64,000 nt of DNA from an uncultured Planctomycetaceae bacterium (lineage in GTDB: Bacteria > Planctomycetota > Planctomycetia > Planctomycetales > Planctomycetaceae): positions 416,001 to 480,000 of the forward strand of contig CAWFGE010000015.1 in NCBI GenBank assembly GCA_963815195.1. The letters run 5' to 3'. The stretch's first letter is position 1, and every line of letters starts with the position of its first letter. Below the pieces are notes generated by a model that saw only the letters and a list, made by a program, of their open reading frames with translations, had not been told where the DNA came from and ran no database searches. Shown piece after piece: positions 406 through 14,549 of this stretch. Position numbers and translations under genes: made by a program.

Positions 406-3402
406 TTATTTCCGTTCGTAAACCGGCCGGCCTTCCAACAGGGCGGGCGAACCGTCGGCTTGGGAGAGTTTTGTGGCACCGGTTTTTAGTTCGCCGATTT
501 TCGTGTAGGTCACCGGGCCGGTTGCGGTCGTCCGCGTCAGCACGTAAAGGTCCGAGGTCCGGCTCGTGCCGGGCGTGGTCTCGTAGGTGATGGTCCACTG
601 GTTTTTGCGGTCGCGGTGCAGCCAACCCACCCAGGCATATTCCGGCCCCAGGTCGATGCTGTTGAGGCTCTCCAGATACGCAGGCAACCCCTTGAGGGCC
701 CCCTTCGTCGCTTGCAATTTGAGGAGAGCATCGGCGGCCTTTTGGCGTTCTTTGGGGGCGTCGGGGTTTGCGGGGTTGATCCAATTGGCGTTCGTGTCGA
801 TCTGGTCCCCGAATTTCGCCAGGGTCTCGGTATCCAGTTGAAGTTGCTGTTTGAGATACACGCTTCCCAGGGTGCCAAACTCCTGCATTGCTTTGACCAA
901 CTGGAATCTGACAAACGGATCCATCTTCTTGTCGTCTTCAAGCGTTTTCAGGATCTCCAAAAAATCCTGTTCCCAGGTTTTGGGGTCGGTGGCGAGTTTG
1001 TTGATCTTTTCCTTGGCGAACTTGCTGAACTTCATTTGCGGGCTTTCGAAATCATAACTCGCCCCGAGCGGCGAGTTCTTGACGTCCTCTTTTTTGACCT
1101 TGAGGTATTCTTCATCATCGAGGGCAATGTCCAACGCATAGCGAATCGTGATGTGCGTGTCCCCTAACGCCGTGGGAATTTTGGTCGAGTAATACTTCTT
1201 CCCGTCCTTGGTCTCGAGGAAATACAGGCTGCGGACAATGGGACGGTTGAGCACATCCTCCACGGCGGACTGAATCTTCCCCTGGTCGCGCAGCGCGAGG
1301 ACCTTGAGATACTCCACGATGGATTCAAGCGCGCGCTGTTCGGGAAAGCCGGGATATTTTTCGAGCACCGCGTTCGCCCGCGCGAGAAGATTGGGAACAC
1401 TCTTGGGATCGAGCGCCGCCAGGTTCGTTCCATTGAGCCGCTGCTTTAGCAAACGCCACTCTTCGAAGCCCGCCCACAGGTCGCTCTCGTTCTTGAGAAC
1501 CTGCTGAAACTCGCGGTGCCTGGGCGTTCCGGCGAATCGATCGTCCTGGACGTAATCGTCCAACTTTTCGCGATAGGCGTTGTGATCGCCGATGGCGCGG
1601 CCGATGCTGAGCAAATAGATCTCCTCGGCCTGGTTCAGTTGATGCTGCTGCTTAAGTTGGGCGATCTCGGCGAGCATCGGCCCCACCAATTGAGCCCCCA
1701 GTCCGGGGCTGAGCCATTTTCTGTCTTGGAGGACGTCGGCCTCCGTCTTGAGCCGCGGCAGTTCGTTGCCGTAGTTTGCCGCATCGGGGTCGAGCGATTG
1801 AATCTTCTGAGAAAAGTTCGCGACATCCGTCCGGAACCTCGTGTCCACCAGCTTTTGCACTTGCGTTTCTTTCGTCTGCGTTTCCCCGCGGAGCGCTAAC
1901 ACCTTGGCGCGCTCCATCTCGGTCTTGGAAATCTCGAACGCATCTTTTAGCGCATTCAATCCCTGAGGCACGGTTCCGAGCGAGGCAGGGTTCTCCGCCG
2001 AGAGTTCCTTGAGAACGTTCTCCGCCCGCGAGATATGCCGCTCGTATTTGGAACGGCGGTCCTTGTCGTCTTGCACTGCGTTTTCCATTTCGCGGATCAA
2101 GGCTTGAATGTCCGGATGGCCGTGGACTCGCGGGTTGTCGGCTTCGAGGTTCGCCACGTATTCCTGGGCTTTATCCAACTGTTTGTCGGCCAGAAGCCCT
2201 TTGAGATTTTCCGCGTGCGCCGAAACCTCCGCGCTCCGCGCATAAGTCCAAATCCCCGCCCCGACGAGCGCGAGCAGCAACACCGCCCCCGAAGCAATGG
2301 CGAGCATTTTGTTCCGCCGCCGGCGGGCGGTTTCCTGGTCGAGTTCTTCCACGCGAACCGTCAACCGCTCTCTAAGATTGTCCGGCACGCCGCGCCCGAA
2401 TTGCTCGATCTTATAGTACAAGGGTTCGAAGTCGGCTTTCGTGGCGTCTTGGCGGTCGAGGGCCCGCTCCAATTCTTTGACCGCCGCGAGATAAGCCGCC
2501 TGCTCGCGGTCCTGGCGGTCTTTCTCGGCGAGCCATTTGAGCGGTTCCTGAACCTTGGCCATGAGCGGATCTTGTTCCGAAAGCCTCGCGACCGCGACGT
2601 GCCGGCCCCATTCCTCGCGGAGCTTTCGGGCGGTCTCCACGTCCGACAGGGAATAGGCCTCGTTCAATAAGGGCTCGAGCTTGACCAGTTCGCTGCGGGC
2701 GTGTTTGCCTTGAATCTCCTGCGTTTTGGCGCTGGCGAAGCCAACGAGCTTGCCCGACGGTTTGACCCGCCATTCGCTGCTTTTGAGTTCCGACTCGATC
2801 GCCGCGAGACGTTTGAGATCCTCGCCGGCCGCGGCGGCTTTGCATTCCTCCAACACGTCGGCGAGGCGGGTCTTTTCGAATTCCTGGATCTCATCGTCCC
2901 ACAGAGGATTGTCCCGGTCGAGCCGGGCCAGTTGCCGCATGATCTCGATGCGAATGGGCAAGGGGCTGCGGGCGAGCGCGTGGAGCCGGTGCCGATACAT
3001 CAGGTCCGCGAGCGGCTCGGCGTCGGCCCAGGCGGTTTCGAGATCGTCCGCCACGTCCACCAAGAGCTCGGGAGCCCGCGCAAAGCCGCACTGCTGGACG
3101 TAATCGTTCCACAGTTCTTGCTCGTCGAAATCCAGCGTGTGCACGAGGTCCAAAAGCGTCGGCTCGACTTGGGCTTCCTGGATCGCCTCCGCCCGGAGGC
3201 CTTTTTGCAGCAGCTCGTCGCATTTTCGCAGCCGATCGTTCACCAGCCGCACGGCCTGGTCGTACTTCTGGTGCGTGCCACTGACGACGGAGGCCTCGAC
3301 TTCCGTGTCCAAACACAACAGCCCGTTGATGGCATCCACAAGCCGCTGAAAGTCCGCCGTGGTCTTCAGTTCGTTGAGTTCCATTTGTAAGTTCGGCATC
3401 AC
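406..3402 (-). CDS. Large alpha-helical/coiled-coil membrane-anchored protein (998 aa), last gene of the GTPase/GAP1 operon
   Basis: Long ORF with one TM (RRRRNKMLAIASGAVLLLALVGAGIWTY) at about aa 365-390 and helical repeats on both sides. Its start overlaps the upstream stop (TGATG at 3397-3401). Confidence 0.8.
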   Translation of the reverse strand: MMPNLQMELNELKTTADFQRLVDAINGLLCLDTEVEASVVSGTHQKYDQAVRLVNDRLRKCDELLQKGLRAEAIQEAQVEPTLLDLVHTLDFDEQELWNDYVQQCGFARAPELLVDVADDLETAWADAEPLADLMYRHRLHALARSPLPIRIEIMRQLARLDRDNPLWDDEIQEFEKTRLADVLEECKAAAAGEDLKRLAAIESELKSSEWRVKPSGKLVGFASAKTQEIQGKHARSELVKLEPLLNEAYSLSDVETARKLREEWGRHVAVARLSEQDPLMAKVQEPLKWLAEKDRQDREQAAYLAAVKELERALDRQDATKADFEPLYYKIEQFGRGVPDNLRERLTVRVEELDQETARRRRNKMLAIASGAVLLLALVGAGIWTYARSAEVSAHAENLKGLLADKQLDKAQEYVANLEADNPRVHGHPDIQALIREMENAVQDDKDRRSKYERHISRAENVLKELSAENPASLGTVPQGLNALKDAFEISKTEMERAKVLALRGETQTKETQVQKLVDTRFRTDVANFSQKIQSLDPDAANYGNELPRLKTEADVLQDRKWLSPGLGAQLVGPMLAEIAQLKQQHQLNQAEEIYLLSIGRAIGDHNAYREKLDDYVQDDRFAGTPRHREFQQVLKNESDLWAGFEEWRLLKQRLNGTNLAALDPKSVPNLLARANAVLEKYPGFPEQRALESIVEYLKVLALRDQGKIQSAVEDVLNRPIVRSLYFLETKDGKKYYSTKIPTALGDTHITIRYALDIALDDEEYLKVKKEDVKNSPLGASYDFESPQMKFSKFAKEKINKLATDPKTWEQDFLEILKTLEDDKKMDPFVRFQLVKAMQEFGTLGSVYLKQQLQLDTETLAKFGDQIDTNANWINPANPDAPKERQKAADALLKLQATKGALKGLPAYLESLNSIDLGPEYAWVGWLHRDRKNQWTITYETTPGTSRTSDLYVLTRTTATGPVTYTKIGELKTGATKLSQADGSPALLEGRPVYERK

Positions 3403-4991
3403 TGGGATTCCTTAAGGCTCCGCGCGAGGTACATCTTTTGGCCTTGGATTTCGGTGTAGACCGCATAACGGATCCGGGCCGACTTTTGCAGGTCCGCGAT
3501 ATGCGTTTGCATCTCGCCGCACCAGGCGATGTTTTGTTCGGCAAGTTTCATGTGAGACTGAAAACCATCGACAATGGCCTTTGCCTGGACGATCTGGCGC
3601 TCCACGAGCATCATGCTCTGCTCGAGTTGCTTTTGGACCGTATATGAAGGATTCTTATTGAGTTCGGCTTGCAATAATGCCAATCGGTTCTGCTGGTTGG
3701 AGACCACTTTGTTGGCCTCCGTATAGATCCGCGACTTTTCCATTTTTTCTTTGATCGCCGCGGCATCCTTCAGAAGCTTTTTCAGCACCACGGAATTCAC
3801 CGGTCTTCGGGACGCGTTAATCTGCGGTAATGAGCCTTTATTGATCTGCGCCGGTTTCAGCTCGTCCACGAACTTCCCTTCGGCAGAGGTATTGAGCACC
3901 AAAGCGGGACCGAATTTCTCATCAAACTGATAGGAAATCTCCAGCTCCACCTTCGTCTCCGAGTCGGGAAACATGATCGGGAAAATCGCGGTGTCCCCGA
4001 TCTTCATGCCTAGCTTCGTGGGAACCTGCTCCCCAATGCCTTGGAGTTCCACATCCAGGAGCAGGCCGCTCGGGTCGTGCACGGCTTGGGATTTCACGGC
4101 AAGGAAAATCCGCGTCGCCTTTCCCGAGTCGCCGTGCTCCTCATCGGCCAGTCGGGCATCGGGAGCATTGTTGGGAACGCATAACCGGCAAAACTCCGAT
4201 TTTCCGCCCTTGGCGATTTCGAGCAAACCGAACTGCAGGCTGAGGGGCTTCGTCCACGCCGGGGCTTCCATGTTCCACGCGAAGCTCAGGCTTCCGGCGG
4301 CCAGTTCAAACATCCCCACTTCCTCAAGCCGCTCTTGCTTTGTGAACGGGTCGACGATTTTCCTTTGCGCCGTCCAGCGGCGAAGTTTCCCATGATCCGA
4401 TTGTTGATCCTCCCGATCGATCACAAAACCGCGAGACGAGCCGGCTGTGTGGATTCTCAAATCGATTGTTGAGGGGTCAACCACAGGGATCTTGGCAATT
4501 TCGACCGGTCTGTTCTCGACGAGGCCGATCGTCTGCGCGCGCTCGGGCAGCGGCAAATAATGATTCTTCGCCAGGATGTCTTCGTTCCACCGGTCCAACG
4601 GTTCGGGTTTTGACGGGAGCGGTTCCGCCGTCGGCGTCAAGTTCTGGCGCGGGTCTTGGGGTTCCCGCCGGACAACCGGCACGGGATTCTCGGCTTCTTG
4701 TTTGGCTTGGAGTTCTTCGCGGGCTTTTTCCCTTTCGGATCGAAAATCCACATCAGCGACCGCGCGGCGATTTCGGGGGCGGGGTTCATCGGATTCGGAG
4801 GCGGCGACGGGCCGGCTGTTTTTGGCGAGCGTCAACATCGCATAAAACAGCACGCCCAGAAGAACGATCGCGGCTCCCGCGCCGATGCCGATCCATGCTC
4901 CGAGCGGCAATCCGCGGCGACTTCGCGCGGCCGGCGGAGGCGGCGGCGTCTTTTCTGCTCTGCGCGGCCTTGAACCTTGAGCACCCATCAT
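3399..4991 (-). CDS. Single-TM hypothetical protein, tandem paralog of the C-terminal module of the upstream GAP1 protein
   Basis: Pro-rich N-terminus, then a TM, then blocks near-identical to the 4988-6601 frame (VADVDF, WNEDILAK, LPLPER.QTIGL, KPLSLQ..LLEI.KG, GQK.YLARS). ATGA overlap with the upstream stop. Confidence 0.8.
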   Translation of the reverse strand: MMGAQGSRPRRAEKTPPPPPAARSRRGLPLGAWIGIGAGAAIVLLGVLFYAMLTLAKNSRPVAASESDEPRPRNRRAVADVDFRSEREKAREELQAKQEAENPVPVVRREPQDPRQNLTPTAEPLPSKPEPLDRWNEDILAKNHYLPLPERAQTIGLVENRPVEIAKIPVVDPSTIDLRIHTAGSSRGFVIDREDQQSDHGKLRRWTAQRKIVDPFTKQERLEEVGMFELAAGSLSFAWNMEAPAWTKPLSLQFGLLEIAKGGKSEFCRLCVPNNAPDARLADEEHGDSGKATRIFLAVKSQAVHDPSGLLLDVELQGIGEQVPTKLGMKIGDTAIFPIMFPDSETKVELEISYQFDEKFGPALVLNTSAEGKFVDELKPAQINKGSLPQINASRRPVNSVVLKKLLKDAAAIKEKMEKSRIYTEANKVVSNQQNRLALLQAELNKNPSYTVQKQLEQSMMLVERQIVQAKAIVDGFQSHMKLAEQNIAWCGEMQTHIADLQKSARIRYAVYTEIQGQKMYLARSLKESQ

Positions 4992-7626
4992 GGCCCATCT
5001 CCCCGTTTGTCATCCGGTTTTTTATCGTCCGGTTTTTTGTCGTCCGGCGTCGCGTTTTCGACTTCGGATTTGCTCCGCGCGAGGTAAACTTTTTGGCCTT
5101 TGACTTCGATGTAAATCGAATAGCCAATCCGAACGGACTTCACGAGGGCTTCAAATTCCGGGGCCATCGCATTGCTCCAACCGATGTTGGTTTGCGCCGC
5201 TTTAATGCGTTCGTCATATCCGCCGACGATTTCGTCCAGTCCATTGATGGACCGTTCGAGCGTGTCGATTTGACTCTGGATTCCCCCCTTGTCTTCGGGT
5301 TTTGCATTTTTCAGGTCCTCCCGGAGAGATCCCACATACTTGGCCTTTTTCGACCGTTCCGTCTTGATTTTAACCAGGTATTTTGAGCCACGCAGATTGT
5401 CTACAACCGTCTGCGAGTTCTTCTTGATCCGTTCGAAATCGCTCAAGTTTGTGGCAAACTTCATTCGTTCGAGAGGAATCTTGTGGGCTTCCTTGCGAGC
5501 GAGACTAATCGTTTCCATCTCCTCGTTTTTATTCTTTTTCTTATCCACAAGGACATTGCGAAACGTGTTTGCTGCGACTTCGAGACGGGGGCCTTGCTTG
5601 TCGTATTGAAAGCTCAGGTCCAATTCCACGTCACCGTCACCTGGGGCAACGTTTCGTTTGATTGTAAAGCTCGCCGTTTCTCCGACGCGCATTCCCTTTT
5701 TTTCGAACGGTTTTGAGGCGACCCCGTCCGCTCGGAGATCGAGAATCAAGGTGCTCGGGTCTTCGACGGCGCTCGAGTTGATGACTAAGGCCAGCTCATT
5801 CCCGCGGCTGGCGGGATCGAGGCTTCGACTTTCCGGATGTCTCGGTTCAGACAGTCGGCAGAGTTCCTGTTCTTTCCCTTCGCCCTTTGAGATTTCGAGC
5901 AAACAGTATTGGAGGCTGAGCGGTTTATACTTTTCCGACTTTGACGCTTCCATGTTCCAAACGAACGCAAAACGTTGATCGGCCAATTCAAACCTCCCCA
6001 CCTCGCCGACGTCGAAGTCTGTCCCGAGTTCTTTGGAACCCAGGGGATTCGGGACTTTCTTTTGGACAATCCACCGGCGAAGTTTCACGCCCTCATCGGA
6101 TTCCTCATCGTCGACTTGGAACACAAATCCGCCTGCGTTCGACCCGTTGCTGGCGGAGTGGAGTTTCAGATCGATCGATGACGGATCGCGGACGTTGATT
6201 TTCGCGAGTTCCACGGGTTTGCTTTCGCTGAGGCCGATGGTTTGCTTCCGCTCGGGTAGGGGGAGCGAGTGGTCCTTCGCCAGAATGTCTTCGTTCCAAT
6301 CGCCCAAAGGTTTTTGTTCGGGCTTGGGCTGCTCTGCTTTGGGCGTTTCTTTTTTCGGTTGAGTGATGACCGTTTTGACGCTTGCCGGCTTATTCTCGGC
6401 CTCTTGTTTGGCTTTGAGTTCTCGGAGTTCTTTTTCTCGTTGGGAACTGAAATCCACATCGGCGACCGGGCGCGTGCGGCGGTTTCGGGCGGAGTCGCGG
6501 GGCGATTCGGAGGCGGCGATGGTGGGGGGGAGGTTTTTGGTCATCATCGCATAAACCAGAGCGGCGACGCCCACGAACAGGACCAAGGCCGAGCCGCCCA
6601 AGATCCAGGGCAGCTTGGAGGAGGCGGCTTGTTTGGCGGGTTTGCCGAAGGGGCTTGCGGGAGCCGCGGGGCCGCCAAACGGACTGGGGGCCGTCGCCGT
6701 CGCGCCGCCGAACGGATTGGGAGCCGGGGCCGATTGCGGCGGGACGGGGACGGTCTCCGCGGCGGCGGGCAGGACCGTTTGCGCCGAGGCGCGAAGGTCC
6801 CGCCCATCCTGGGGGCCGAGGGCGAGGCAATGTCGGCCGGCCTTCCCGCGCGGGCGGCTTGGACGAAGGGGTTTCCTTCGGGGGCTCGGCGGCGGCTTTG
6901 GCGAAGCTCGACGAGATCGATTTTTCGCGAATGGCTCGCGGCGCGGGCTTGCTGGGCTTCGGGGCTCTTATCCAATACGAATCGCCACAGGCAATCCACG
7001 CCCGCGGGCAGCTTGGTGAAGTAGGTGCTGAAGGATGTCGTCCAGGCTTTCTCGCGGGGGAGGATCGACAGGGCTTCGGCGACGAGCGGCAGGACCTCGT
7101 CGCCGGGAGCGAAAATGATATACATCGGCCGGTTGCTGGCGTCGGCCGCCGACTCCGCCAGGACGCCCGCCCAGCCCGCATCGCCGGTGAGGGCTTCCCA
7201 GTGCCGACTCGGGCCCTGGTAAAACTCCGCCATCGGCAGAACCGGGCCGTGGGGTTCCCAGCGGGTTTGGCCGTCCCAGCGGGTCTGGCAGACGCCCGCG
7301 TCCAACAGGGCCGCGGGTCCGGACGCCGGCAGTTCGTCCAAAGTGAGGGCGACATGATGGGCGAGCTTGTTGGTCCGGCCCGAATAATCCATTCCGTAAT
7401 CGCCGACCCGCGACAGGATCTGATACCGCTTCCCGCCGAGGGTGTGCATCAAATGCGAATAGTTGACGGGGTGCGGCGGCTGGTCGGCCTGGCGGTATCC
7501 ACTGAGACCTTCCAGAAACTCTTTCAGATTCCGCGGCATGCCCTGCGTGCAGGACACGGTGCAAAACCCCTGGTCCGCGGGGTTCAAGCCTTCGGGAGCG
7601 GAGGTGTAAAGCAATTCCTGGCTCAC
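4988..7626 (-). CDS. GTPase-associated protein 1 (GAP1-N2 + GAP1-M) with Pro-rich linker, TM and extracytoplasmic C-terminal module; frameshifted near 6810
   Basis: N-terminus MSQELLYTSAPEGL..GFCTVSCTQGMP...LSGYR...DYSGRTNKLAHH and W..LTGDAGWAGVLA / WTTSFSTYFT resemble GAP1-N2/GAP1-M. A frame switch near the C-run at about 6811-6815 joins it to ..NPFGG..SPFGG..KLPWILGGSALVLFVG and the 4988-6601 ORF. AAGGAG RBS before the GTG. Confidence 0.72.
5005..5049 (-). repeat. 15-bp imperfect tandem repeat x3 encoding DDKKP/DDKRG at the GAP1 C-terminus
   Basis: Translation PDDKKPDDKKPDDKRG. Confidence 0.7.
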
Positions 7627-7639
7627 GGGCCGGTCTCCT

Positions 7640-9142
7640 TCAGGTAGGTTTCATTGGGGGCGGGATGTTCGGCGGGTTGGCCGTTCCGGGAGTCGTGCGT
7701 CGTTTTCTCCGACTTCCGCGAAACCGTTTCTTGCTCCTGGAGGGGAACCTCGCCGGCGCGGGGGCCGGCTTTGATTTGGGGCTGCGATGTTTTACGGGCG
7801 GCGGCGCCTGGTGACGCTCCTTTCGGGATGAACTTTCCGCGGCCGGCGGCCTCGCGGTCTCGGCGGTCACCGGCGGCACGAGGCCTTCGACCGAGCGGTG
7901 CATTGCGTAAAGCAGCGGCACTTCGGCAAATTGCGGCTCGACGTTCCGCGGACGCACGACGAGTTTCCCGCTCGACGGATCGACTTCCGGCGTCGTCCCC
8001 AGCGCGCTCACCGGAATGTAAGTCACATCCGCGAAGTTGCCCTCGGCGGCGGTGACCACTTCGGGCGAATACTTGTTCAACACGTTCCGCACCTGGGCGG
8101 ACAGCGACAGGAGCTTGCGAACGTCCAAACCGCTCCGGCCGTCGGTGCGGGGCTTGATCAGCCAACTCGGATCGAGGGCCACGTTGTTCGTGAGCGCCAA
8201 CCACGCATCGTATTTGGTCACGACCACCACCAGAGGCTGCGAGCATTTTTCGTGCTGGCTGAGTCCGTTTTGCGTTTTGATGCGGCTGGCGGCCTCGGCG
8301 ATGACGCCCTCCTGCGGGTTGACGCTGCCGTACTCGCTCAGCTGCGGATCGTCGCTTTTGCCTTCGCAGGCCTGGCGGAATTTGTAATGCTGCGTCGGGT
8401 CGAACAAATACAAGAGCGAACTGGAGAGGGCCAGGTGTTTGGTGACAAACTTCCCCGTCGCGTCGCCGCCCGGCATGAAATGCTCGCCCGCGTTGTCGTA
8501 CAGGCACAGCGCCCGCGTGAGCCGTTTGGATTGGGACGCGTCCTCGAACCGCGCACCGTCCGGCAGCAGCGAAAACACGAACGGCTTCGGATAAAACACG
8601 CCGCGACCCTTTTCAAAAACCGCGTTCAGCAATTCCCCGCCGGCGACTTCCGTCTTCCACAGCGAGACCAGCGAATCGGGCTTGGGGTTTTTGAAGAGGA
8701 TTTCCTCGTAGCGGTTTAAGACCTGGTTGGCTCCGGGATCGGAATCGACAAACGTGATGCCGAATTCCCTCGCCAAGGTGGTCCGCATCTTCCAGGTCAT
8801 CGCGGCCAGGAAGTTCGATTTGCCGGACGCGGGAGCCCCGAGGATCGAAATAAACAACGGCGACATCTCCACCAGCGCCCGCGAGACGATCAGATGGCAA
8901 CTGGGGCAGGCCAACTGGCTGCAGACGTCGCCTTTGATGTCGACCGCTTCCCCGCGCACCGTGAACCGCGAGGGCAAAAACCGGGCCTGGGCCTCGGTGC
9001 CCAAACGCTCGTCCCCCTGCAAGTCGGGGTGCGCGCTGACCCACTTGATGTCGCCCGGAGCGAACAGGCTCCAGCAGTGCGGGCACCTCACGCGGGCTTT
9101 GAGCGGGAGTTGGATGCGAGTTTTCTTTCTGCCTTTGGCCAC
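7640..9142 (-). CDS. TRAFAC-clade P-loop GTPase with N-terminal zinc ribbon (double-GTPase/GTPase-centric conflict system type)
   Basis: CPHC...CPSC ribbon; G1 GAPASGKS; G3 LYDNAGE; G4 VVTKYD; G5 PVSALG. Likely GTG start at 9142 with a GAGGGG RBS. A frameshift in the Pro-rich tail may move the true stop to 7623, overlapping the GAP1 start. Confidence 0.85.
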   Translation of the reverse strand: MAKGRKKTRIQLPLKARVRCPHCWSLFAPGDIKWVSAHPDLQGDERLGTEAQARFLPSRFTVRGEAVDIKGDVCSQLACPSCHLIVSRALVEMSPLFISILGAPASGKSNFLAAMTWKMRTTLAREFGITFVDSDPGANQVLNRYEEILFKNPKPDSLVSLWKTEVAGGELLNAVFEKGRGVFYPKPFVFSLLPDGARFEDASQSKRLTRALCLYDNAGEHFMPGGDATGKFVTKHLALSSSLLYLFDPTQHYKFRQACEGKSDDPQLSEYGSVNPQEGVIAEAASRIKTQNGLSQHEKCSQPLVVVVTKYDAWLALTNNVALDPSWLIKPRTDGRSGLDVRKLLSLSAQVRNVLNKYSPEVVTAAEGNFADVTYIPVSALGTTPEVDPSSGKLVVRPRNVEPQFAEVPLLYAMHRSVEGLVPPVTAETARPPAAESSSRKERHQAPPPVKHRSPKSKPAPAPARFPSRSKKRFRGSRRKRRTTPGTANPPNIPPPMKPT

Positions 9143-9198
9143 AACGGGTCCCCTCTGTTTTTGGCGTCCGTCTTCTAATACCGGGCAATCATCGATCG

Positions 9199-10233
9199 TC
9201 AATCCCTCTCTCTTTGCGGAACCCACCGGCCTCCACCGGATTCGCCGACGGGCGCTCGATGTCTATTTCGTAAGTTCGTCGGCAGTTGGGTGACGGCCGG
9301 GATGTTTTGTGCGGAAGAACTTGCCCGCGAATGGCTTCCGTCGAAGGCTCCCGCGGCCCACGCGAATAATAGAAACATGACCCCGAGGATGAAGAGGCTC
9401 AGGAACACCGCCAACCCGATCCAGACCGGCTGATAGTCCCGCCACAGATTGGAATCCGTCCGGCGGCCGGGAACCGACGGCTGCCGGGGAACGGCCGGTT
9501 TGGGCGGCGGAGTGGGAGCCGGAGGAATCGCCGGCAGATCTTTCGTCGGCAATGGCGGGGGGGATTTCTGCGCGGGAAGCGGAGGCATTCCTTTGGAACG
9601 CTCCGGCACCGGCGGCGGGGTTTTGGGATAATCCACCCGGTAAGCCTGAAACTCCAGGTTGCTGTCGTCCGGCGGCGCGTCTTCGGCGGCGACAACGGTT
9701 CTCGGCGGGGGCGAGATCAGTTTTGTCCGCGTGGTGCCAGTGGCCGATACCGTGTCCGTCTCCCCCGGAGGTTTTTGTTCGCGGCGTTTTTTTGTCCATT
9801 CGCCGATGAGTTCTTCGATCCGCTCGGAATCCACCTGCTGAACCAACGCCAGCCAGCGGCGGAGGTCGTTCACGTTGCACGACGGGCCCGAAAACGTCGG
9901 GTTCGTGGAATAGAGTTGATACAGTTGGGAAATGAGGTTTTGATCGTACTCCTGCCAGCGGTTTTCGTCGGACACCGTTCGCCGGGCCTCGGCCAGGAGC
10001 CGCTGAAAGGCCAGAGCCCGCTCCCGAACCTGTTTGTCCTTATGGTTTTGGCATTGAAACAGATAGTCGCCGGCGGCTTGGAAGGAATCGAGCAGCCCGT
10101 CCCGGTTCCGGCAGAGACGGGGTTGTCCCACCAGTTGGTAGAAATCCGCCGGCCGATCGTCGCGATTCAACCACTCTTTGAGCCGAGCTTCCACCATAGG
10201 TTTCGATGCCGTTTGCGTTGTCGTGTCTGCCAC
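9199..10233 (-). CDS. Planctomycete membrane protein with N-terminal J-domain-like helical segment, Pro-rich linker and TM
   Basis: WLNRDDRPADFYQLVG resembles the planctomycete 'WLGI..P.HY.LLG' N-terminal domain; Pro-rich stretch; TM VWIGLAVFLSLFILGVMFLLFAWAAG. Confidence 0.6.
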   Translation of the reverse strand: MADTTTQTASKPMVEARLKEWLNRDDRPADFYQLVGQPRLCRNRDGLLDSFQAAGDYLFQCQNHKDKQVRERALAFQRLLAEARRTVSDENRWQEYDQNLISQLYQLYSTNPTFSGPSCNVNDLRRWLALVQQVDSERIEELIGEWTKKRREQKPPGETDTVSATGTTRTKLISPPPRTVVAAEDAPPDDSNLEFQAYRVDYPKTPPPVPERSKGMPPLPAQKSPPPLPTKDLPAIPPAPTPPPKPAVPRQPSVPGRRTDSNLWRDYQPVWIGLAVFLSLFILGVMFLLFAWAAGAFDGSHSRASSSAQNIPAVTQLPTNLRNRHRAPVGESGGGRWVPQRERD

Positions 10234-10502: not shown

Positions 10503-13500
10503 TTATTTGGTGCCGCTCTTTTCCGCGAGCCAGGGATCGATCCAGACGGGGTATTGGCTGGCCAGATTGTTGCTGTCGGTGAGGATTTTCAGATGCTTCA
10601 CCTCCGAGACATCTACGGAAAATGATTGGCTTTTGCCGGGGTCGCGGAGGGGGTCGGAGGTCCAGAGCACTTTGCCGTCCCCCACGATATGGAAGGTGGT
10701 CGAGACCCGCGTGCGGTCGGCTTTTCCGTTGTCGTCGATGCCGACCTCTCCCGCCAGCCGGGTGTACCGCAAGCCGAGCGCATACTCCACGGACGCGGGC
10801 GGTTGGGGCACGCCCGTGCGGGTCCACAGGGAATGCTTTTTCGGCTTTCCTCCAACGGAAACCGCCCGCCCCTCCAAATCGCCGGCGATGTTTTGTTTGA
10901 GGGGCGTCAAATCTTCGAGATAAATCCAGTCCCCGACTTCCGAATCTGTGGAAGATGGCCGTGAAGGAGGCCGGCGGTCGGGCGCTGTTGCTCCTCCGCC
11001 ACCACCGCCATTACCTCCACCTCCACCACCGCCATTACCTCCACCTCCACCACCGCCGCTACCTCCGCCTCCGCCGCTACCTCCGCGTTGGGGCGTTTGG
11101 GCGAGTTGATTCAACAATTGGCGGGCTCGATTGGCCGCCTTGGTGTGGGGATATTGCTTGACTACATCTTCCAGCCATTCTTTGCCCTTGTCGGTCTTGC
11201 CTTGATCCAATAGACCGATTGCGAGCCGGACGCGCTCCGCCGCCTGTTCTTCGTCCGTGCGATTATAAACGGGGGGCTCCTTTTGTTTTTCCTCCGGTTC
11301 CTCGTTTGCCGATTCACCGGGCGACTCGGCGGGCGGGGAATGCGGGGTCTGCGAGGGATTTCCCTCGGCGAGCACCGTCGTTTGCGGCGTGCTGCCGGGA
11401 ATGGGAACCGCGTCCGGGCCTGTCGTCCGTTCAAACTCGCAGACGAGCAGTTTGTCGTTCGGTTTGAGCTTGCCGGTGTAGTATTTCACCTCGCCGTCGT
11501 TCTTGACGGCCACGCGGAACTCCGTGGGGTCGGCCGCTCCGTGATTGGCGTAATGATGGGCCAGAACGCGGTACTTTCCGCGCGGGGCGGTGCCGAGCGG
11601 CCAATAGACATTCTCGACGGGTTCCTCGGACCACTCGCCCCCCGCGTTCATATCGACATCCAGTTCGCCGCCGCACCGCGATTTGCGGTGGCGAAAGTAG
11701 ATCACCTCTCCCGAAGGCGCCTGCACGTGGAGATCGATGTCGTTGATGTTGTCCCACAGCAGGGAAACCTGCACATCGCCGGATTTGGCTCCGGCCCGTT
11801 CGAGCCGACTGCGAAAGTCCTCGCGGGGAACGGAAGCTTCCGGTTTGACGGTCGCCGTTCCCTCGGCGTGGATCGCCCCTGGCGGAGCAGGGGTTGCAAA
11901 CGCCTTTGCCACTTCCGCAGGGTCTTCTCGGGTGGGTTTGAGTTTGATTTCGCCCAACGCGGCGGGTTCCTCCGCCGTGAAGCGGGCCGTTCTCTGCTCG
12001 GGCTGAAACCCCTTCGCCGAGATCGTGACCAGGGCTTCGCCGGGCGGGAATCCCGCGAGGCGAAATTCGCCCTCGTCGTTCGGCGAGCCCTTGACCGATA
12101 TGCCTTCCACATGGATGACAGCCTCCGGCAAGGGCCGGCCCGCTTCGCTGACGACCGAACCGACGACCGCCCCCGCCCCGCTGAGGACAATATCCACGTG
12201 CGTTTCTTCGCCCGGGCCCAGCGTTCTCGAAACGACGGCCGGTTGATAGCCCGACCGCGCCGCGTCCAGGTCGGTTTGAGCGGCGGGCAGGTTCTCGAAC
12301 CGAAACTCGCCCTTGTCGTTGGTATTGGTTTTCCGCGAACTGCCGGCGATTTGGACCAAAACCCCCGCGAGCGGCCGGTCTCCCGGACTCGCGACGACGG
12401 TGCCCGTCAGCACGGCGTCTCCCGTCAATCCGATGTCCACAAGAGACTCTTCGCCGGTCTTGAGTTCCGCCTCCTGCTCCCGGCTGGGATAGCCCGCGGC
12501 GGTGATTTTCAATTTCACCGGGCCGGCGGCGATGTCTTCCAGGCGGAACCGGCCCTCGGCATCGGTCGTCGTCTTTTGCGTGCTTCCCGCCACTTCCACC
12601 AAAGCCGCGGGGATTGCGGTTTTCGCAATCGCATCCTGGATCCGGCCCGATAGAATCGTGCCGCCTTTCAGTTCGACGTTGATCGTCGCTTCCCGGCCGG
12701 CTTCAAATGTCTGCGGCAGTTCCTCCTGCCGATAGCCGCGCCCCACCACTTGCACCGTTGCGGCCCGGGCGGGAATCTCGGCGAGCATAAATGTGCCGTC
12801 CGCGCCGGTTTTCGCCGAGAGGTCGGTCCCCGCAATCCGCACTTCCACGCCGGACACCGGTTTTTTTTCGACCGCATCGGTGACGCGGCCCTTCAACAGG
12901 CAATTGCCGACGAGGGCAATCTCCAACGGCCTGTCCTCGCCCGCCGCGCGAATCGTCTGCTGGAATTCCAGGAAACCGGAAGCCGCCGATTGCAGAGGAA
13001 ACTCGCCCGGCGGGAGTTTTTCCAGCCGGAATTCGCCCCGCTCGTTGGTGGTCGCGGTCAGGTTCAATCCCGGCACTTCGACTTTAACATTCGCGAGCGG
13101 TTGGCCGTCGGCCTTGGCCTTCACAAAGCCTCGCGCCGTCCCCGCTCCATACAAACCCACGCGGATCGGCGTGACATCCCGCTCGACCTGCCGATCCACA
13201 TGCTCCGCAAGGTAGCCCGCGGCTTGCACGGCGATCGCGGCATCTCCGTGGGGAAGGCCGGCGATTTCAAATCGGCCGTCGGCGGCGGTCTTGGCGGTCA
13301 GCGGCGTTCCCAGCAAAAACACCGCCGCCTCTGGAACCGGCCGGAGCGTCAGCGCATCAATCACCGTCCCCGCCAATTTCCCCGTCCCCGCCAATTCCAG
13401 CGTGACGCGCCCCGGCGACTTCTCCCCTAGCGTTTCTTTGCGGGCCTCGGTTTGAAAGCCCTCCGCCGAGACTTCCACCTCGACCGTTCCGGCGGGGACT

Positions 13501-14549
13501 TCGGGAATTTGGAACTCGCCCTGTTCATTGGTTGGCACCGTGAGGCCCCATCGCGGAAGGGACACGAGTGCCGCGGAAACGGGCCTCTGGTGAATGCGAT
13601 CGATCACCCGCCCCGCGAATGTCGCCGCCCCGCGGAGGGGCACGTCCAACGTGCGCTCGCTGGCTTGGGAGAGATCGGCCTTGCGCTTCTCGGCGAGAAA
13701 TCCCGGCGCGGCGATTTCGAACTCAGCGGAGTCCGGGGCGAGATGCTCGAGATGAAAACGGCCCTCGGCGTCGGTTTGGGTTTGCGTTTCCGTTCCCGTA
13801 AGTTTGACCGTGGCCCCGGCGATGGGCTTTTGTCCTGCGAGCGACACCACCCGGCCTTCGACCGCGACCAACGCCGGCGGACGCGTGAGCCAATAGCCCG
13901 CGCCGCCCGCCAATAGCACCAACAATAACAGGGCCGCGAGCAGTGGAACCGGAGACCGCGGCACCTTGAGTTTGGCCCCGCACCGGGGGCACGCCGGGCG
14001 GCTTTCCGTGAGGATCGCCAGCGTTTGGCAATCCGGATCTCGGCAGATCACCGGCTGGCCGCTTGCTGAGGTTTTGCGTTCATAACCCCAAAGCCAAACC
14101 AGCCGCCACAGCCCGGACGAGTCGAGATATTTGCAGAACACGCCCGCTCTCGCCGCCTTGTGCGGGTCGGACCGGAGTTGTTTCAGGCCGCCCAGCATCA
14201 CGTGCCTTAAGGCGCGTTCGGTCCCGGTGTGGGCGGGAGCGGCTTCCAGTTTTTGTTCGATCGCGTCGAATTCCTTGCGGAAGGCTCCTTGGCATTCCGC
14301 CGCGGTCAGGGGCAGGATGTTTTTCGGAATCACCCGTTCTCCGGCATCGGTCCGCAATTCATACCGGACGAGATTGCCGTCCCACTTGGGTTCCGCGAGG
14401 TACGAACCGAGCCATTTCCGCAAAATCCCGGCGTGCGCACCGCCGCGGTCCAAAAGTCCCATCCCGGGCTGAAGCGCCAATCGGCGAAAGTCCGCCGCCT
14501 GATCCGACAAATCGACTAAAACGACGGAATTCACGCTCATCACCCCCAC
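10503..14549 (-). CDS. Large multidomain membrane-anchored protein: SrfA-like N-domain, Zn ribbon, TM, 8 carboxypeptidase-regulatory-like (CarboxypepD_reg) repeats, YfaP/DUF2135-like domain, TPR-like hairpin, Gly linker, NPCBM/NEW2 domain
   Basis: Eight ~80-aa G.V.D....P...A.V...TD..G.F repeats; GDVQVSLLWDNINDIDLHV..GGELDVD..PVENVYW (YfaP-like); C-terminal IYLEDL..LAGEVGIDD..FHIVGDGKVLWTS..FSVDVS (NPCBM); CRDPDC..CPRC before the TM. Confidence 0.8.
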   Translation of the reverse strand: MGVMSVNSVVLVDLSDQAADFRRLALQPGMGLLDRGGAHAGILRKWLGSYLAEPKWDGNLVRYELRTDAGERVIPKNILPLTAAECQGAFRKEFDAIEQKLEAAPAHTGTERALRHVMLGGLKQLRSDPHKAARAGVFCKYLDSSGLWRLVWLWGYERKTSASGQPVICRDPDCQTLAILTESRPACPRCGAKLKVPRSPVPLLAALLLLVLLAGGAGYWLTRPPALVAVEGRVVSLAGQKPIAGATVKLTGTETQTQTDAEGRFHLEHLAPDSAEFEIAAPGFLAEKRKADLSQASERTLDVPLRGAATFAGRVIDRIHQRPVSAALVSLPRWGLTVPTNEQGEFQIPEVPAGTVEVEVSAEGFQTEARKETLGEKSPGRVTLELAGTGKLAGTVIDALTLRPVPEAAVFLLGTPLTAKTAADGRFEIAGLPHGDAAIAVQAAGYLAEHVDRQVERDVTPIRVGLYGAGTARGFVKAKADGQPLANVKVEVPGLNLTATTNERGEFRLEKLPPGEFPLQSAASGFLEFQQTIRAAGEDRPLEIALVGNCLLKGRVTDAVEKKPVSGVEVRIAGTDLSAKTGADGTFMLAEIPARAATVQVVGRGYRQEELPQTFEAGREATINVELKGGTILSGRIQDAIAKTAIPAALVEVAGSTQKTTTDAEGRFRLEDIAAGPVKLKITAAGYPSREQEAELKTGEESLVDIGLTGDAVLTGTVVASPGDRPLAGVLVQIAGSSRKTNTNDKGEFRFENLPAAQTDLDAARSGYQPAVVSRTLGPGEETHVDIVLSGAGAVVGSVVSEAGRPLPEAVIHVEGISVKGSPNDEGEFRLAGFPPGEALVTISAKGFQPEQRTARFTAEEPAALGEIKLKPTREDPAEVAKAFATPAPPGAIHAEGTATVKPEASVPREDFRSRLERAGAKSGDVQVSLLWDNINDIDLHVQAPSGEVIYFRHRKSRCGGELDVDMNAGGEWSEEPVENVYWPLGTAPRGKYRVLAHHYANHGAADPTEFRVAVKNDGEVKYYTGKLKPNDKLLVCEFERTTGPDAVPIPGSTPQTTVLAEGNPSQTPHSPPAESPGESANEEPEEKQKEPPVYNRTDEEQAAERVRLAIGLLDQGKTDKGKEWLEDVVKQYPHTKAANRARQLLNQLAQTPQRGGSGGGGGSGGGGGGGNGGGGGGGNGGGGGGATAPDRRPPSRPSSTDSEVGDWIYLEDLTPLKQNIAGDLEGRAVSVGGKPKKHSLWTRTGVPQPPASVEYALGLRYTRLAGEVGIDDNGKADRTRVSTTFHIVGDGKVLWTSDPLRDPGKSQSFSVDVSEVKHLKILTDSNNLASQYPVWIDPWLAEKSGTK
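10999..11070. repeat. 24-bp tandem repeat x3 encoding a Gly-rich linker (GN/SGGGGGG)
   Basis: ccaccaccgccattacctccacct twice exactly, plus a third degenerate copy. Confidence 0.85.

Follow-up and report, generated by a model that had tools for sequence, protein, structure and literature searches.

A zinc-ribbon GTPase–GAP1 gene cluster with predicted membrane-anchored partners in a Planctomycetaceae bacterium

Gene content and membrane topology

The window, that is, the whole stretch of 64,000 nucleotides analysed here, contains a co-directional minus-strand gene cluster with a zinc-ribbon GTPase and a GAP1 protein (Table 1). The ORF list places six long ORFs between 406 and 10233; the co-directionality claimed in the original prediction was borne out, but not its count of five genes. 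Six separate genes were ruled out as well, since two of the ORFs form one frameshifted GAP1 gene. A sixth gene, found in 4/4 congeners, moves the upstream end of the block to 14549. A promoter scan stayed at chance level.

Table 1. Features of the cluster and the basis for each call.
Feature	Position	Strand	Basis
1348-aa accessory protein (likely)	10503..14549	-	Pfam, TM prediction, congener synteny
344-aa single-pass protein	9199..10233	-	ORF and TM prediction
Zinc-ribbon TRAFAC GTPase, ~506 aa	7623..9142	-	motifs, family, start and SD
GAP1, ~879 aa as one gene	4988..7626	-	Pfam, congener frame
530-aa stand-alone TM and periplasmic tail	3399..4991	-	identity to GAP1 tail, AlphaFold
998-aa third core protein	406..3402	-	locus linkage, AlphaFold model

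A simple hydropathy scan predicts one TM helix in each partner and none in the GTPase, as had been proposed; with the 1348-aa gene included, five predicted membrane-anchored partners stand beside the GTPase. The N-terminal side of this single hydrophobic helix is richer in Lys/Arg in every partner, and Lys/Arg is more frequent before than after the helix in 43/50 GAP1 homologs and 39/43 homologs of the 998-aa protein. From these scan-based calls, we infer an N-in/C-out topology of the partners.

The 1348-aa protein consists of an N-terminal domain (~1–195), a Cys-pair motif, a TM helix at 203–221 (predicted single-pass) and a C-terminal part for which Pfam reports eight carboxypeptidase-regulatory-like beta-sandwich repeats and an NPCBM domain. 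Its gene lies directly upstream of the block in 4/4 congeners with differing flanks, and relatives occur inside motor-type operons (L003, L004, L055). However, the tie to the cluster, from which a 269-nt gap separates the gene, is weakened by three paralogs elsewhere in the genome. It is likely an accessory member, which the original prediction had overlooked. An N-domain paralog in this genome heads a cluster ending in a Virul_Fac (PF10139) gene, which we take to resemble SrfA-SrfB-SrfC-like operons, the SrfA label being given by position only; the present locus differs in having no Virul_Fac gene and an N-domain for which Pfam holds no model.

The 344-aa protein comprises a helical N-domain, a Pro-rich linker and a predicted TM helix at 272–290. 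It had been called J-like; no Pfam match at E ≤ 1 backs this label. The position of its gene is kept in three congeners and in two further loci (L004 and L072), and an Hsp70 gene adjoins the homolog in L004.

The three-gene core and its family

The GTPase carries the zinc-ribbon motifs CPHC (20) and CxxxxCxxCH (74–83), and C20, C23, H38, C74, C79, C82 and H83, invariant in its homologs, are predicted metal ligands. All the motifs of the proposed zinc-ribbon GTPase with intact G1/G3/G4/G5 were located: G1 GAPASGKS (102), G2 T164, G3 YDNAGE (215) with the family-typical Walker-B Glu, G4 TKYD (309) and G5 SALG (379); D216, G219 and E220 are invariant across 40 homologs. The DO-GTPase check gave a divided outcome, in that the window's own protein scored 15.9 bits against DO-GTPase2, below the cutoff of 27, whereas 34/40 aligned homologs matched this model (PF19993) at E ≤ 0.001. 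A PDB sequence search with the GTPase yielded no useful match.

For GAP1, the Pfam check was positive, with GAP1-N2 (76 bits) and GAP1-M (58 bits) exceeding the cutoff of 24. The order is GAP1-N2 (1–121), GAP1-M (144–239), a Pro-rich linker, the TM helix and a periplasmic tail; conservation of the GAP1 part stops at approximately residue 265, and neither the window ORFs nor 47 GAP1/tail proteins gave a GAP1-C match. A one-base frameshift located at 6772–6833 splits the gene into an ORF with the GAP1 domains and no TM (6544–7626) and one with the TM and tail (4988–6967), so the proposed GAP1-like TM protein was right as to domains and TM, but spreads over two ORFs. The corresponding linker of a congener (G001, P0123) lies in a single frame, and the TM follows the GAP1 domains in 50 homologous ORFs of at least 340 aa. 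The second one-base frameshift, near 7754, sits in the low-complexity tail of the GTPase. Contigs of two independent runs (X1, X2) hold one extra base at 7753/7754, which gives a GTPase end as in six close homologs and, once corrected, a GTGA overlap with GAP1 at 7623–7626. Other genes of the same assembly are also split, and shifts in congeners lie at different positions. Judging from these sequence comparisons, both frameshifts are likely assembly errors; programmed frameshifting is disfavoured by the single frame of the congener and by the differing site in the other runs.

The 998-aa protein is predicted to have a helical cytoplasmic domain (~1–360), a TM helix at ~366–384, a long periplasmic helical rod and a distal alpha/beta domain. 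Its model (pLDDT 88.4, pTM 0.48) returned only generic helical matches in fold searches (Foldseek TM ≤ 0.12; best Z 10.0 over 75 residues), and the N-domain fell into unnamed ESM Atlas clusters below 0.9. The gene is present in 69/69 GTPase and GAP1 loci with at least 4 kb of room; reciprocally, 12/14 loci found through the 998-aa protein alone contain GTPase and GAP1, and in one case (P0115) it is fused to the GTPase. The core of soluble zinc-ribbon GTPase, GAP1 and 998-aa protein is invariant.

Since GAP1-N2 and GAP1-M score above cutoff, the GTPase homologs match DO-GTPase2 and the gene block is syntenic in other genomes, the assignment to the GTPase–GAP1 conflict family made in the original prediction stands. 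The GAP1-N2 family was described as a computational prediction, with no experiment, in Kaur 2020 (PMC7159879), where planctomycetes are among the carriers, 67% of the systems have TM components and GAP1 is often TM-fused; the membrane association of the family is therefore already known. The locus shares with these systems a zinc-ribbon DO-GTPase2 with the Walker-B Glu directly upstream of GAP1-N2/M, a TM-fused GAP1 and variable, TM-rich partners. It differs in its single GTPase, in the 998-aa helical membrane protein as third core member and in the duplicated, seemingly polymorphic periplasmic tail. Because GAP1-C and FNIII were not found (no fn3 match by Pfam in core genes or tails), we consider it a variant of the Kaur 2020 systems, in which the 998-aa protein appears to take the place of the FNIII partner. 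With respect to the planctomycete GYF subtype of that study, relatives have its paired-GYF TM or trypsin gene, but this locus is without GYF. The main text of that study mentions no MotA, ExbB, TolQ, proton or PilB. It is also distinct from GAP1-N1 DO-GTPase systems in being of the N2 type, and the 998-aa protein has no GASH match in Pfam at E ≤ 0.1.

Periplasmic tails, motor modules and descent

The 530-aa protein, 39–42% identical to the GAP1-fused tail, had been read as a GAP1 paralog; it contains no GAP1 domain and is a copy of the TM and periplasmic tail only. AlphaFold (pLDDT 88.8, pTM 0.80) predicts beta-sandwich domains interrupted by a coiled-coil hairpin ~100 aa long. In fold searches, the hairpin of the tail model gave matches with Z up to 10.2, the beta-sandwich matched Ig domains too weakly for an assignment (Z 5.4, rmsd 4.5, 104 residues), and Foldseek returned nothing at E ≤ 0.001. 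Only three other matches came from a tail search in a 5.8-billion set; 28/52 tails are linked into one family, and the tail is duplicated in several lineages (L004, L032, L072, L084). Compared with G001, amino-acid identity is 42% for the tails and 83–87% for the cytoplasmic core. The corresponding dS values of 2.0–2.6 for the tails, which are near saturation and derive from one genome pair aligned at 42% identity, contrast with ~0.6–0.83 for the core and 0.59–0.65 for two flanking control genes. With a tail omega of 0.21–0.28 in the same comparison, the tails are, as judged by divergence, polymorphic yet under purifying selection. Their GC4 is 0.76 and 0.80 versus 0.89–0.93; it is lower in tail than core in 33/39 intact GAP1 genes, and the 998-aa protein likewise shows a lower value in its periplasmic part (29/36). 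Relaxed codon selection could be an alternative source of the low tail GC4, and a test for recombination mosaics was weak (67/2000 permutations).

ExbB-type motor genes occur in 28/43 long-type loci of relatives and are missing from 15/43 within the stretch examined; one motor-type locus (L064) belongs to the cultured Allorhodopirellula solitaria. In relatives, GYF genes occur alongside this motor; the GTPase and ExbB are joined there by a membrane protein with GYF and by two single-TM proteins that each have an invariant Asp. A GYF-PilB/GspE ATPase is found in 11 loci of one clade, which is without the periplasmic parts; vWA, trypsin and Hsp70 are other variable modules. The two single-TM proteins barely resemble ExbD (hhalign probability <1%; ESM Atlas TM 0.30/0.40 over 112 residues, weak), and the second had no useful match in a PDB sequence search.

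These modules would suit a housekeeping envelope machine for adhesion, surface movement, uptake or budding, similar to Myxococcus MglA/GltJ/AglRQS, whose tails would be variable adhesins or substrate binders. Compared with Agl-Glt (PMC11135422), the relatives, though not this locus, share GTPase, zinc ribbon, GYF membrane protein, Pro-rich partners and a TolQ/ExbB-type channel with two small partners; the GYF domain of GltJ binds Pro-rich sequences there, and the linkers here contain 23–28% Pro. This reading is also favoured by the ATPase of the clade without periplasmic parts, by a shortened 998-aa homolog beside motor genes, without GTPase, in three genomes and by the sugar-binding NPCBM domain of the 1348-aa protein. 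However, the GTPase belongs to another family, neither Glt nor outer-membrane parts were found and this locus is without GYF and motor, which makes the likeness one of analogy, not membership. Given, in addition, the motor-less 15/43 loci and this genus, the restriction of the core to ~5% of the phylum sample and the weak ExbD likeness, we regard such a machine as rather unlikely.

In this genus, the ExbB/TolQ channel with ExbD/TolR partners, GYF and the PilB/GspE ATPase are absent from the locus; ExbB in 4/4 genus genomes is only a paralog at 27–29% identity, the family median being 52%. As the genus clade is nested among motor-bearing loci in the GTPase tree, we infer that the cognate motor was lost. 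The locus would then represent a natural motor-less form, with three core genes and one polymorphic periplasmic domain, to set against motor- and ATPase-bearing relatives. Its two frameshifts, the missing motor and GYF genes and the long branch to the genus (0.78) might instead mark a decaying remnant undergoing pseudogenisation. Such decay is highly improbable in view of omega values of 0.11–0.32 in every part, of the frameshift not present in two independent runs and of the other splits in this assembly and differently placed shifts in congeners.

The core occurs in 15/300 other phylum genomes and is patchy within genera (1/3 and 2/3 genomes); duplicate loci (L083, L088) were removed from the counts. 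A quick-method GTPase tree, with incomplete loci left out and 72 rows kept, groups the loci mostly by family (Pirellulaceae, Thermoguttaceae, Planctomycetaceae), which fits vertical descent better than a mobile conflict locus. The cluster flanks differ among congeners, but this is no proof of mobility, because the flanks themselves are jumbled.

Possible function

Zorya ZorAB is an anti-phage membrane defence with an ExbB/MotA-type motor. Relatives of the locus resemble it in having such a motor in a predicted conflict operon, and their ExbB weakly matches ZorA models (E 7e-5), in the channel helices only. A Zorya-style defence would sense periplasmic breach and signal through the GTPase to growth arrest or to effectors encoded elsewhere. 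The defence role predicted for the family (Kaur 2020, PMC7159879), its patchy occurrence and the polymorphic tails agree with this. On the other hand, PADLOC 2.0 gave a single match of 34 residues, to a P-loop (E 0.0026), among seven proteins of the window, the neighbourhood consists of metabolic and housekeeping genes with no defence island or defence genes among them, and scans of 47 GAP1/tail proteins and of 30 neighbours that recur across loci detected no nuclease or pore-forming domain. Genes of the ZorB OmpA type or for a nuclease/helicase were not seen, the motor is not in this locus and the GTPase tree is largely vertical. We regard anti-phage defence of this kind as somewhat unlikely.

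The original prediction noted no enzymatic effector and proposed trans-envelope sensing or membrane remodelling rather than nuclease-type defence. Indeed, Pfam, NCBIfam and PADLOC identified no enzymatic effector or toxin domain in the locus, and the polymorphic tail, like the motor and ATPase modules found in relatives, speaks for trans-envelope sensing. The step from a missing enzyme to a role outside defence is invalid, as non-enzymatic effectors are argued to dominate such conflict systems (Kaur 2020, PMC7159879).

We favour, with a probability of roughly 0.45, a GTP-gated inner-membrane receptor-scaffold whose exchangeable periplasmic tails may recognise a foreign or neighbour-derived macromolecule. 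We propose the following hypothetical sequence, in which (i) the two tails bind a ligand and the signal crosses the membrane to GAP1-N2/M; (ii) GAP1-N2/M would set the nucleotide state of the GTPase; (iii) the GTP-bound GTPase would bring the 998-aa rod together with the accessory membrane proteins as a patch in the envelope; and (iv) the output would be physical, as containment or local envelope remodelling, with no nuclease or toxin. An ExbB-type ion motor would supply power in most relatives; with the cognate motor lost, the complex of this genus would therefore be unpowered or use the paralogous ExbB operon of the genome. If the tail is the specificity determinant, planctomycetes would have a GTPase-driven recognition system that acts across the inner membrane. 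A speculative extension, to which we give little weight, is a self/non-self machine in which a GTPase-switched receptor carries strain-exchanged tips and can be coupled to different engines, either an ion motor or a pilus-type ATPase, or, as here, to none. A stand-alone double-GYF gene (C7) is just 29–33% like the operon type.

Gene content and reading frames

Six long ORFs were found on the minus strand where the original prediction had counted five genes, but five genes remain in substance, since GAP1 is split across two of the ORFs. This reading rests on frame changes near 7754 and near 6800, on a congener (G001) whose GAP1-M, linker, TM segment and tail all lie in one frame (P0123), and on further split genes elsewhere in the same assembly. 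At 7753/7754, one additional base is present in contigs from two independent runs; the frame with this base gives the GTPase an end as in six close homologs and an overlap with the GAP1 start. The site near 6800 was covered by no public contig. A TM segment follows the GAP1 domains in 50 homologous ORFs.

The predicted GAP1 was confirmed by GAP1-N2 (76 bits) and GAP1-M (58 bits) matches, both above the Pfam cutoff. The GTPase of the window matches DO-GTPase2 at only 15.9 bits, below the cutoff of 27, but 34 of 40 aligned members match PF19993 at E ≤ 0.001; among 8000 candidates scored, 1350 were relatives, many with a precomputed PF19993 match. Its proposed intact G motifs and Zn ribbon hold, G1–G5 and seven Cys/His residues being invariant among the aligned homologs. 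The supposed GAP1 paralog, however, is a copy of the GAP1 tail only. The remaining four ORFs of the cluster gave no real Pfam match. The genome (8.87 Mb, 25 contigs, 94.6% complete) holds one GAP1-N2 copy, and the closest named locus among the matches listed is from a Planctomycetaceae MAG.

Features of the cluster, its surroundings and the compared loci
Feature	Location	Remark
J-like TM protein		first of five genes; J-domain label presumed
GTPase		~506 aa after frame correction
GAP1-TM-tail		~879 aa as one gene
GAP1-N2/GAP1-M ORF	window:6544-7626	
Stand-alone copy of GAP1 tail		
998-aa protein	window:406-3402	
1348-aa protein, N-domain	window:13941-14540	190 aa, unnamed
N-domain copies, same genome	L123:9412-12093; L124:328-3940	
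N-domain paralog cluster	L125:10874-19726	G000 C23, plus strand
Stand-alone ExbB-type operon	L101:7238-13219	G000 C19
Shortened 998-aa homologs	L126; L127:8903-13067; L128:1-3106	
ATPase-clade loci	L012, L014, L016, L017, L019, L025, L026, L027, L029, L035, L036	
Second full GAP1 gene	L003:7034-9754	upstream of GTPase; N2 domain scores identical, tail different
Start of planctomycete cytochrome c protein	window:1-333	72 nt past operon
Sodium:solute symporter, GXGXG-motif protein	window:14683-17578	upstream neighbours
DabA inorganic-carbon transporter gene, two Proton_antipo_M genes	window:46806-52738	
Sulfatase in two frames	window:53800-55354	likely another assembly indel

A conserved core and its relation to predicted systems

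The comparison covered the best 80 of an estimated ~1400 stretches, 8 loci from relatives and 14 found by the 998-aa protein alone. With duplicates removed and the window included, 99 GTPase loci bear out the expected synteny: GAP1 is present in 90 and the 998-aa gene in 72; among GTPase–GAP1 loci with at least 4 kb of room, the latter gene is present in 69 of 69. Reciprocally, 12 of the 14 loci found by the 998-aa protein carry GTPase and GAP1, the other two being a 4.7-kb contig and a partial match, and in one database protein (P0115) the GTPase and the N-domain of the 998-aa protein form a single chain. The cluster is real, conserved and under selection, with omega at 0.11–0.32 in all parts (versus G001); decay, the reading that the broken frames might invite, is very improbable. 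Of 300 other genomes of the phylum, each scored for two candidates, 15 have the large protein. Its predicted model runs from a helical cytoplasmic domain through a TM segment and a long rod to an alpha/beta domain at the distal end, and fold-match searches with it returned no telling match.

Close GTPase homologs without GAP1 within 4–10 kb occur at L073, L075, L034 and L076–L078, the first two sharing a neighbour set that differs from that of the system. In P0014, P0027 and P0047, a Ser/Thr kinase domain is fused N-terminally to the GTPase.

Literature searches on DO-GTPase with GAP1, or on GAP1-N2, found only PMC7159879, the accessible part of which already contains planctomycete GAP1-N2 systems, TM-fused GAP1 and paired GYF genes; a search for a planctomycete/TRAFAC/ExbD/TolQ link, judged partly by title, found none. 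Because this locus has no GAP1-C and no proven FNIII, the cluster is a variant rather than a canonical member of the predicted family. Relative to that accessible part, three things are new: the form without a motor, the tail that is both duplicated and polymorphic, and the clade with the ATPase.

Polymorphic tails, variable modules and a possible mechanism

The GAP1 tail behind the TM segment spans 350–800 residues and is barely alignable between genera, yet iterated profiles joined 28 of 52 tails in one family (reversed-sequence control, E 0.009 at best). The predicted model of the stand-alone copy (pLDDT 88.8) shows beta-sandwich domains into which a coiled-coil hairpin is inserted, and it matches Ig domains weakly. 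Compared with G001, a single genome pair, dS is 2.1–2.6 in the tails (near saturation) and 1.3 in the periplasmic rod; the cytoplasmic core has values of 0.6–0.8, and two control genes in the flanks have ~0.6. Tail GC4 is lower in 33 of 39 intact genes, and a mosaic test gave a weak signal. The divergence pattern would fit an exchange of old alleles.

The sequences read as a soluble switch and a GAP1 tethered to the membrane, together with a conserved rod and polymorphic tips that face outward. We propose, with a probability of roughly 45%, that recognition occurs in the periplasm, that the signal would be relayed to the GTPase, and that an envelope patch would be assembled with a physical output. 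Phage defence proper, in the manner of Zorya, is less probable; a mobile defence locus is at odds with the lack of any PADLOC match beyond a short P-loop stretch, the ordinary neighbour genes and a tree that follows families.

Modules were counted in 43 long-type loci (GAP1 and large protein continuing past the TM segment) outside this genus, each with at least 2.5 kb of downstream sequence. A GYF gene is present in 38 and an ExbB/TolQ/MotA gene in 28, the other 15 having no ExbB within the stretch covered; behind the motor gene come two coiled-coil proteins, related to each other, each with a single TM segment, an invariant Asp and a weak likeness to ExbD. A mechanical housekeeping machine, by analogy with the Agl-Glt machine of Myxococcus in the accessible part of PMC11135422, would be slightly less probable still than phage defence. 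In one clade of 11 loci, GAP1 and the large protein both end right after the TM segment, and the next gene fuses a GYF domain to a PilB/GspE-type ATPase. Three genomes (G321, G103, G178) have a shortened 998-aa homolog adjoining ExbB and the pair of single-TM genes; neither GTPase nor GAP1 lies within the stretches examined.

In the window's genus, no GYF or motor gene adjoins the block, and the sole ExbB match is a 27–29% paralog (4/4 genomes). In the stand-alone operon of the window's genome, a long-tailed ExbB-type gene is combined with two genes that distantly resemble the single-TM partners of the motor; all four genus genomes have a similar ExbB. Since a quick tree places the genus on a long branch nested among motor-bearing loci, loss of the motor is the likely direction.

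The upstream repeat protein

The 1348-aa repeat protein lies 269 nt upstream of the cluster, a place kept in 3/3 congeners. Its N-domain has four copies in the genome and 288 relatives at 50% clustering in a large library; this query found none in 300 phylum genomes. The family heads repeat proteins of 800–2400 aa; among 33 scanned of 150 listed relatives, 11 carry Ig-like or carboxypeptidase-regulatory repeats and one a TIR domain, the rest giving no match. In one further cluster of this genome, a paralog with Ig-like repeats stands at the head and is accompanied by a 1126-aa protein and a terminal Virul_Fac gene (PF10139, 156 bits), an arrangement that we take to be SrfABC-like.
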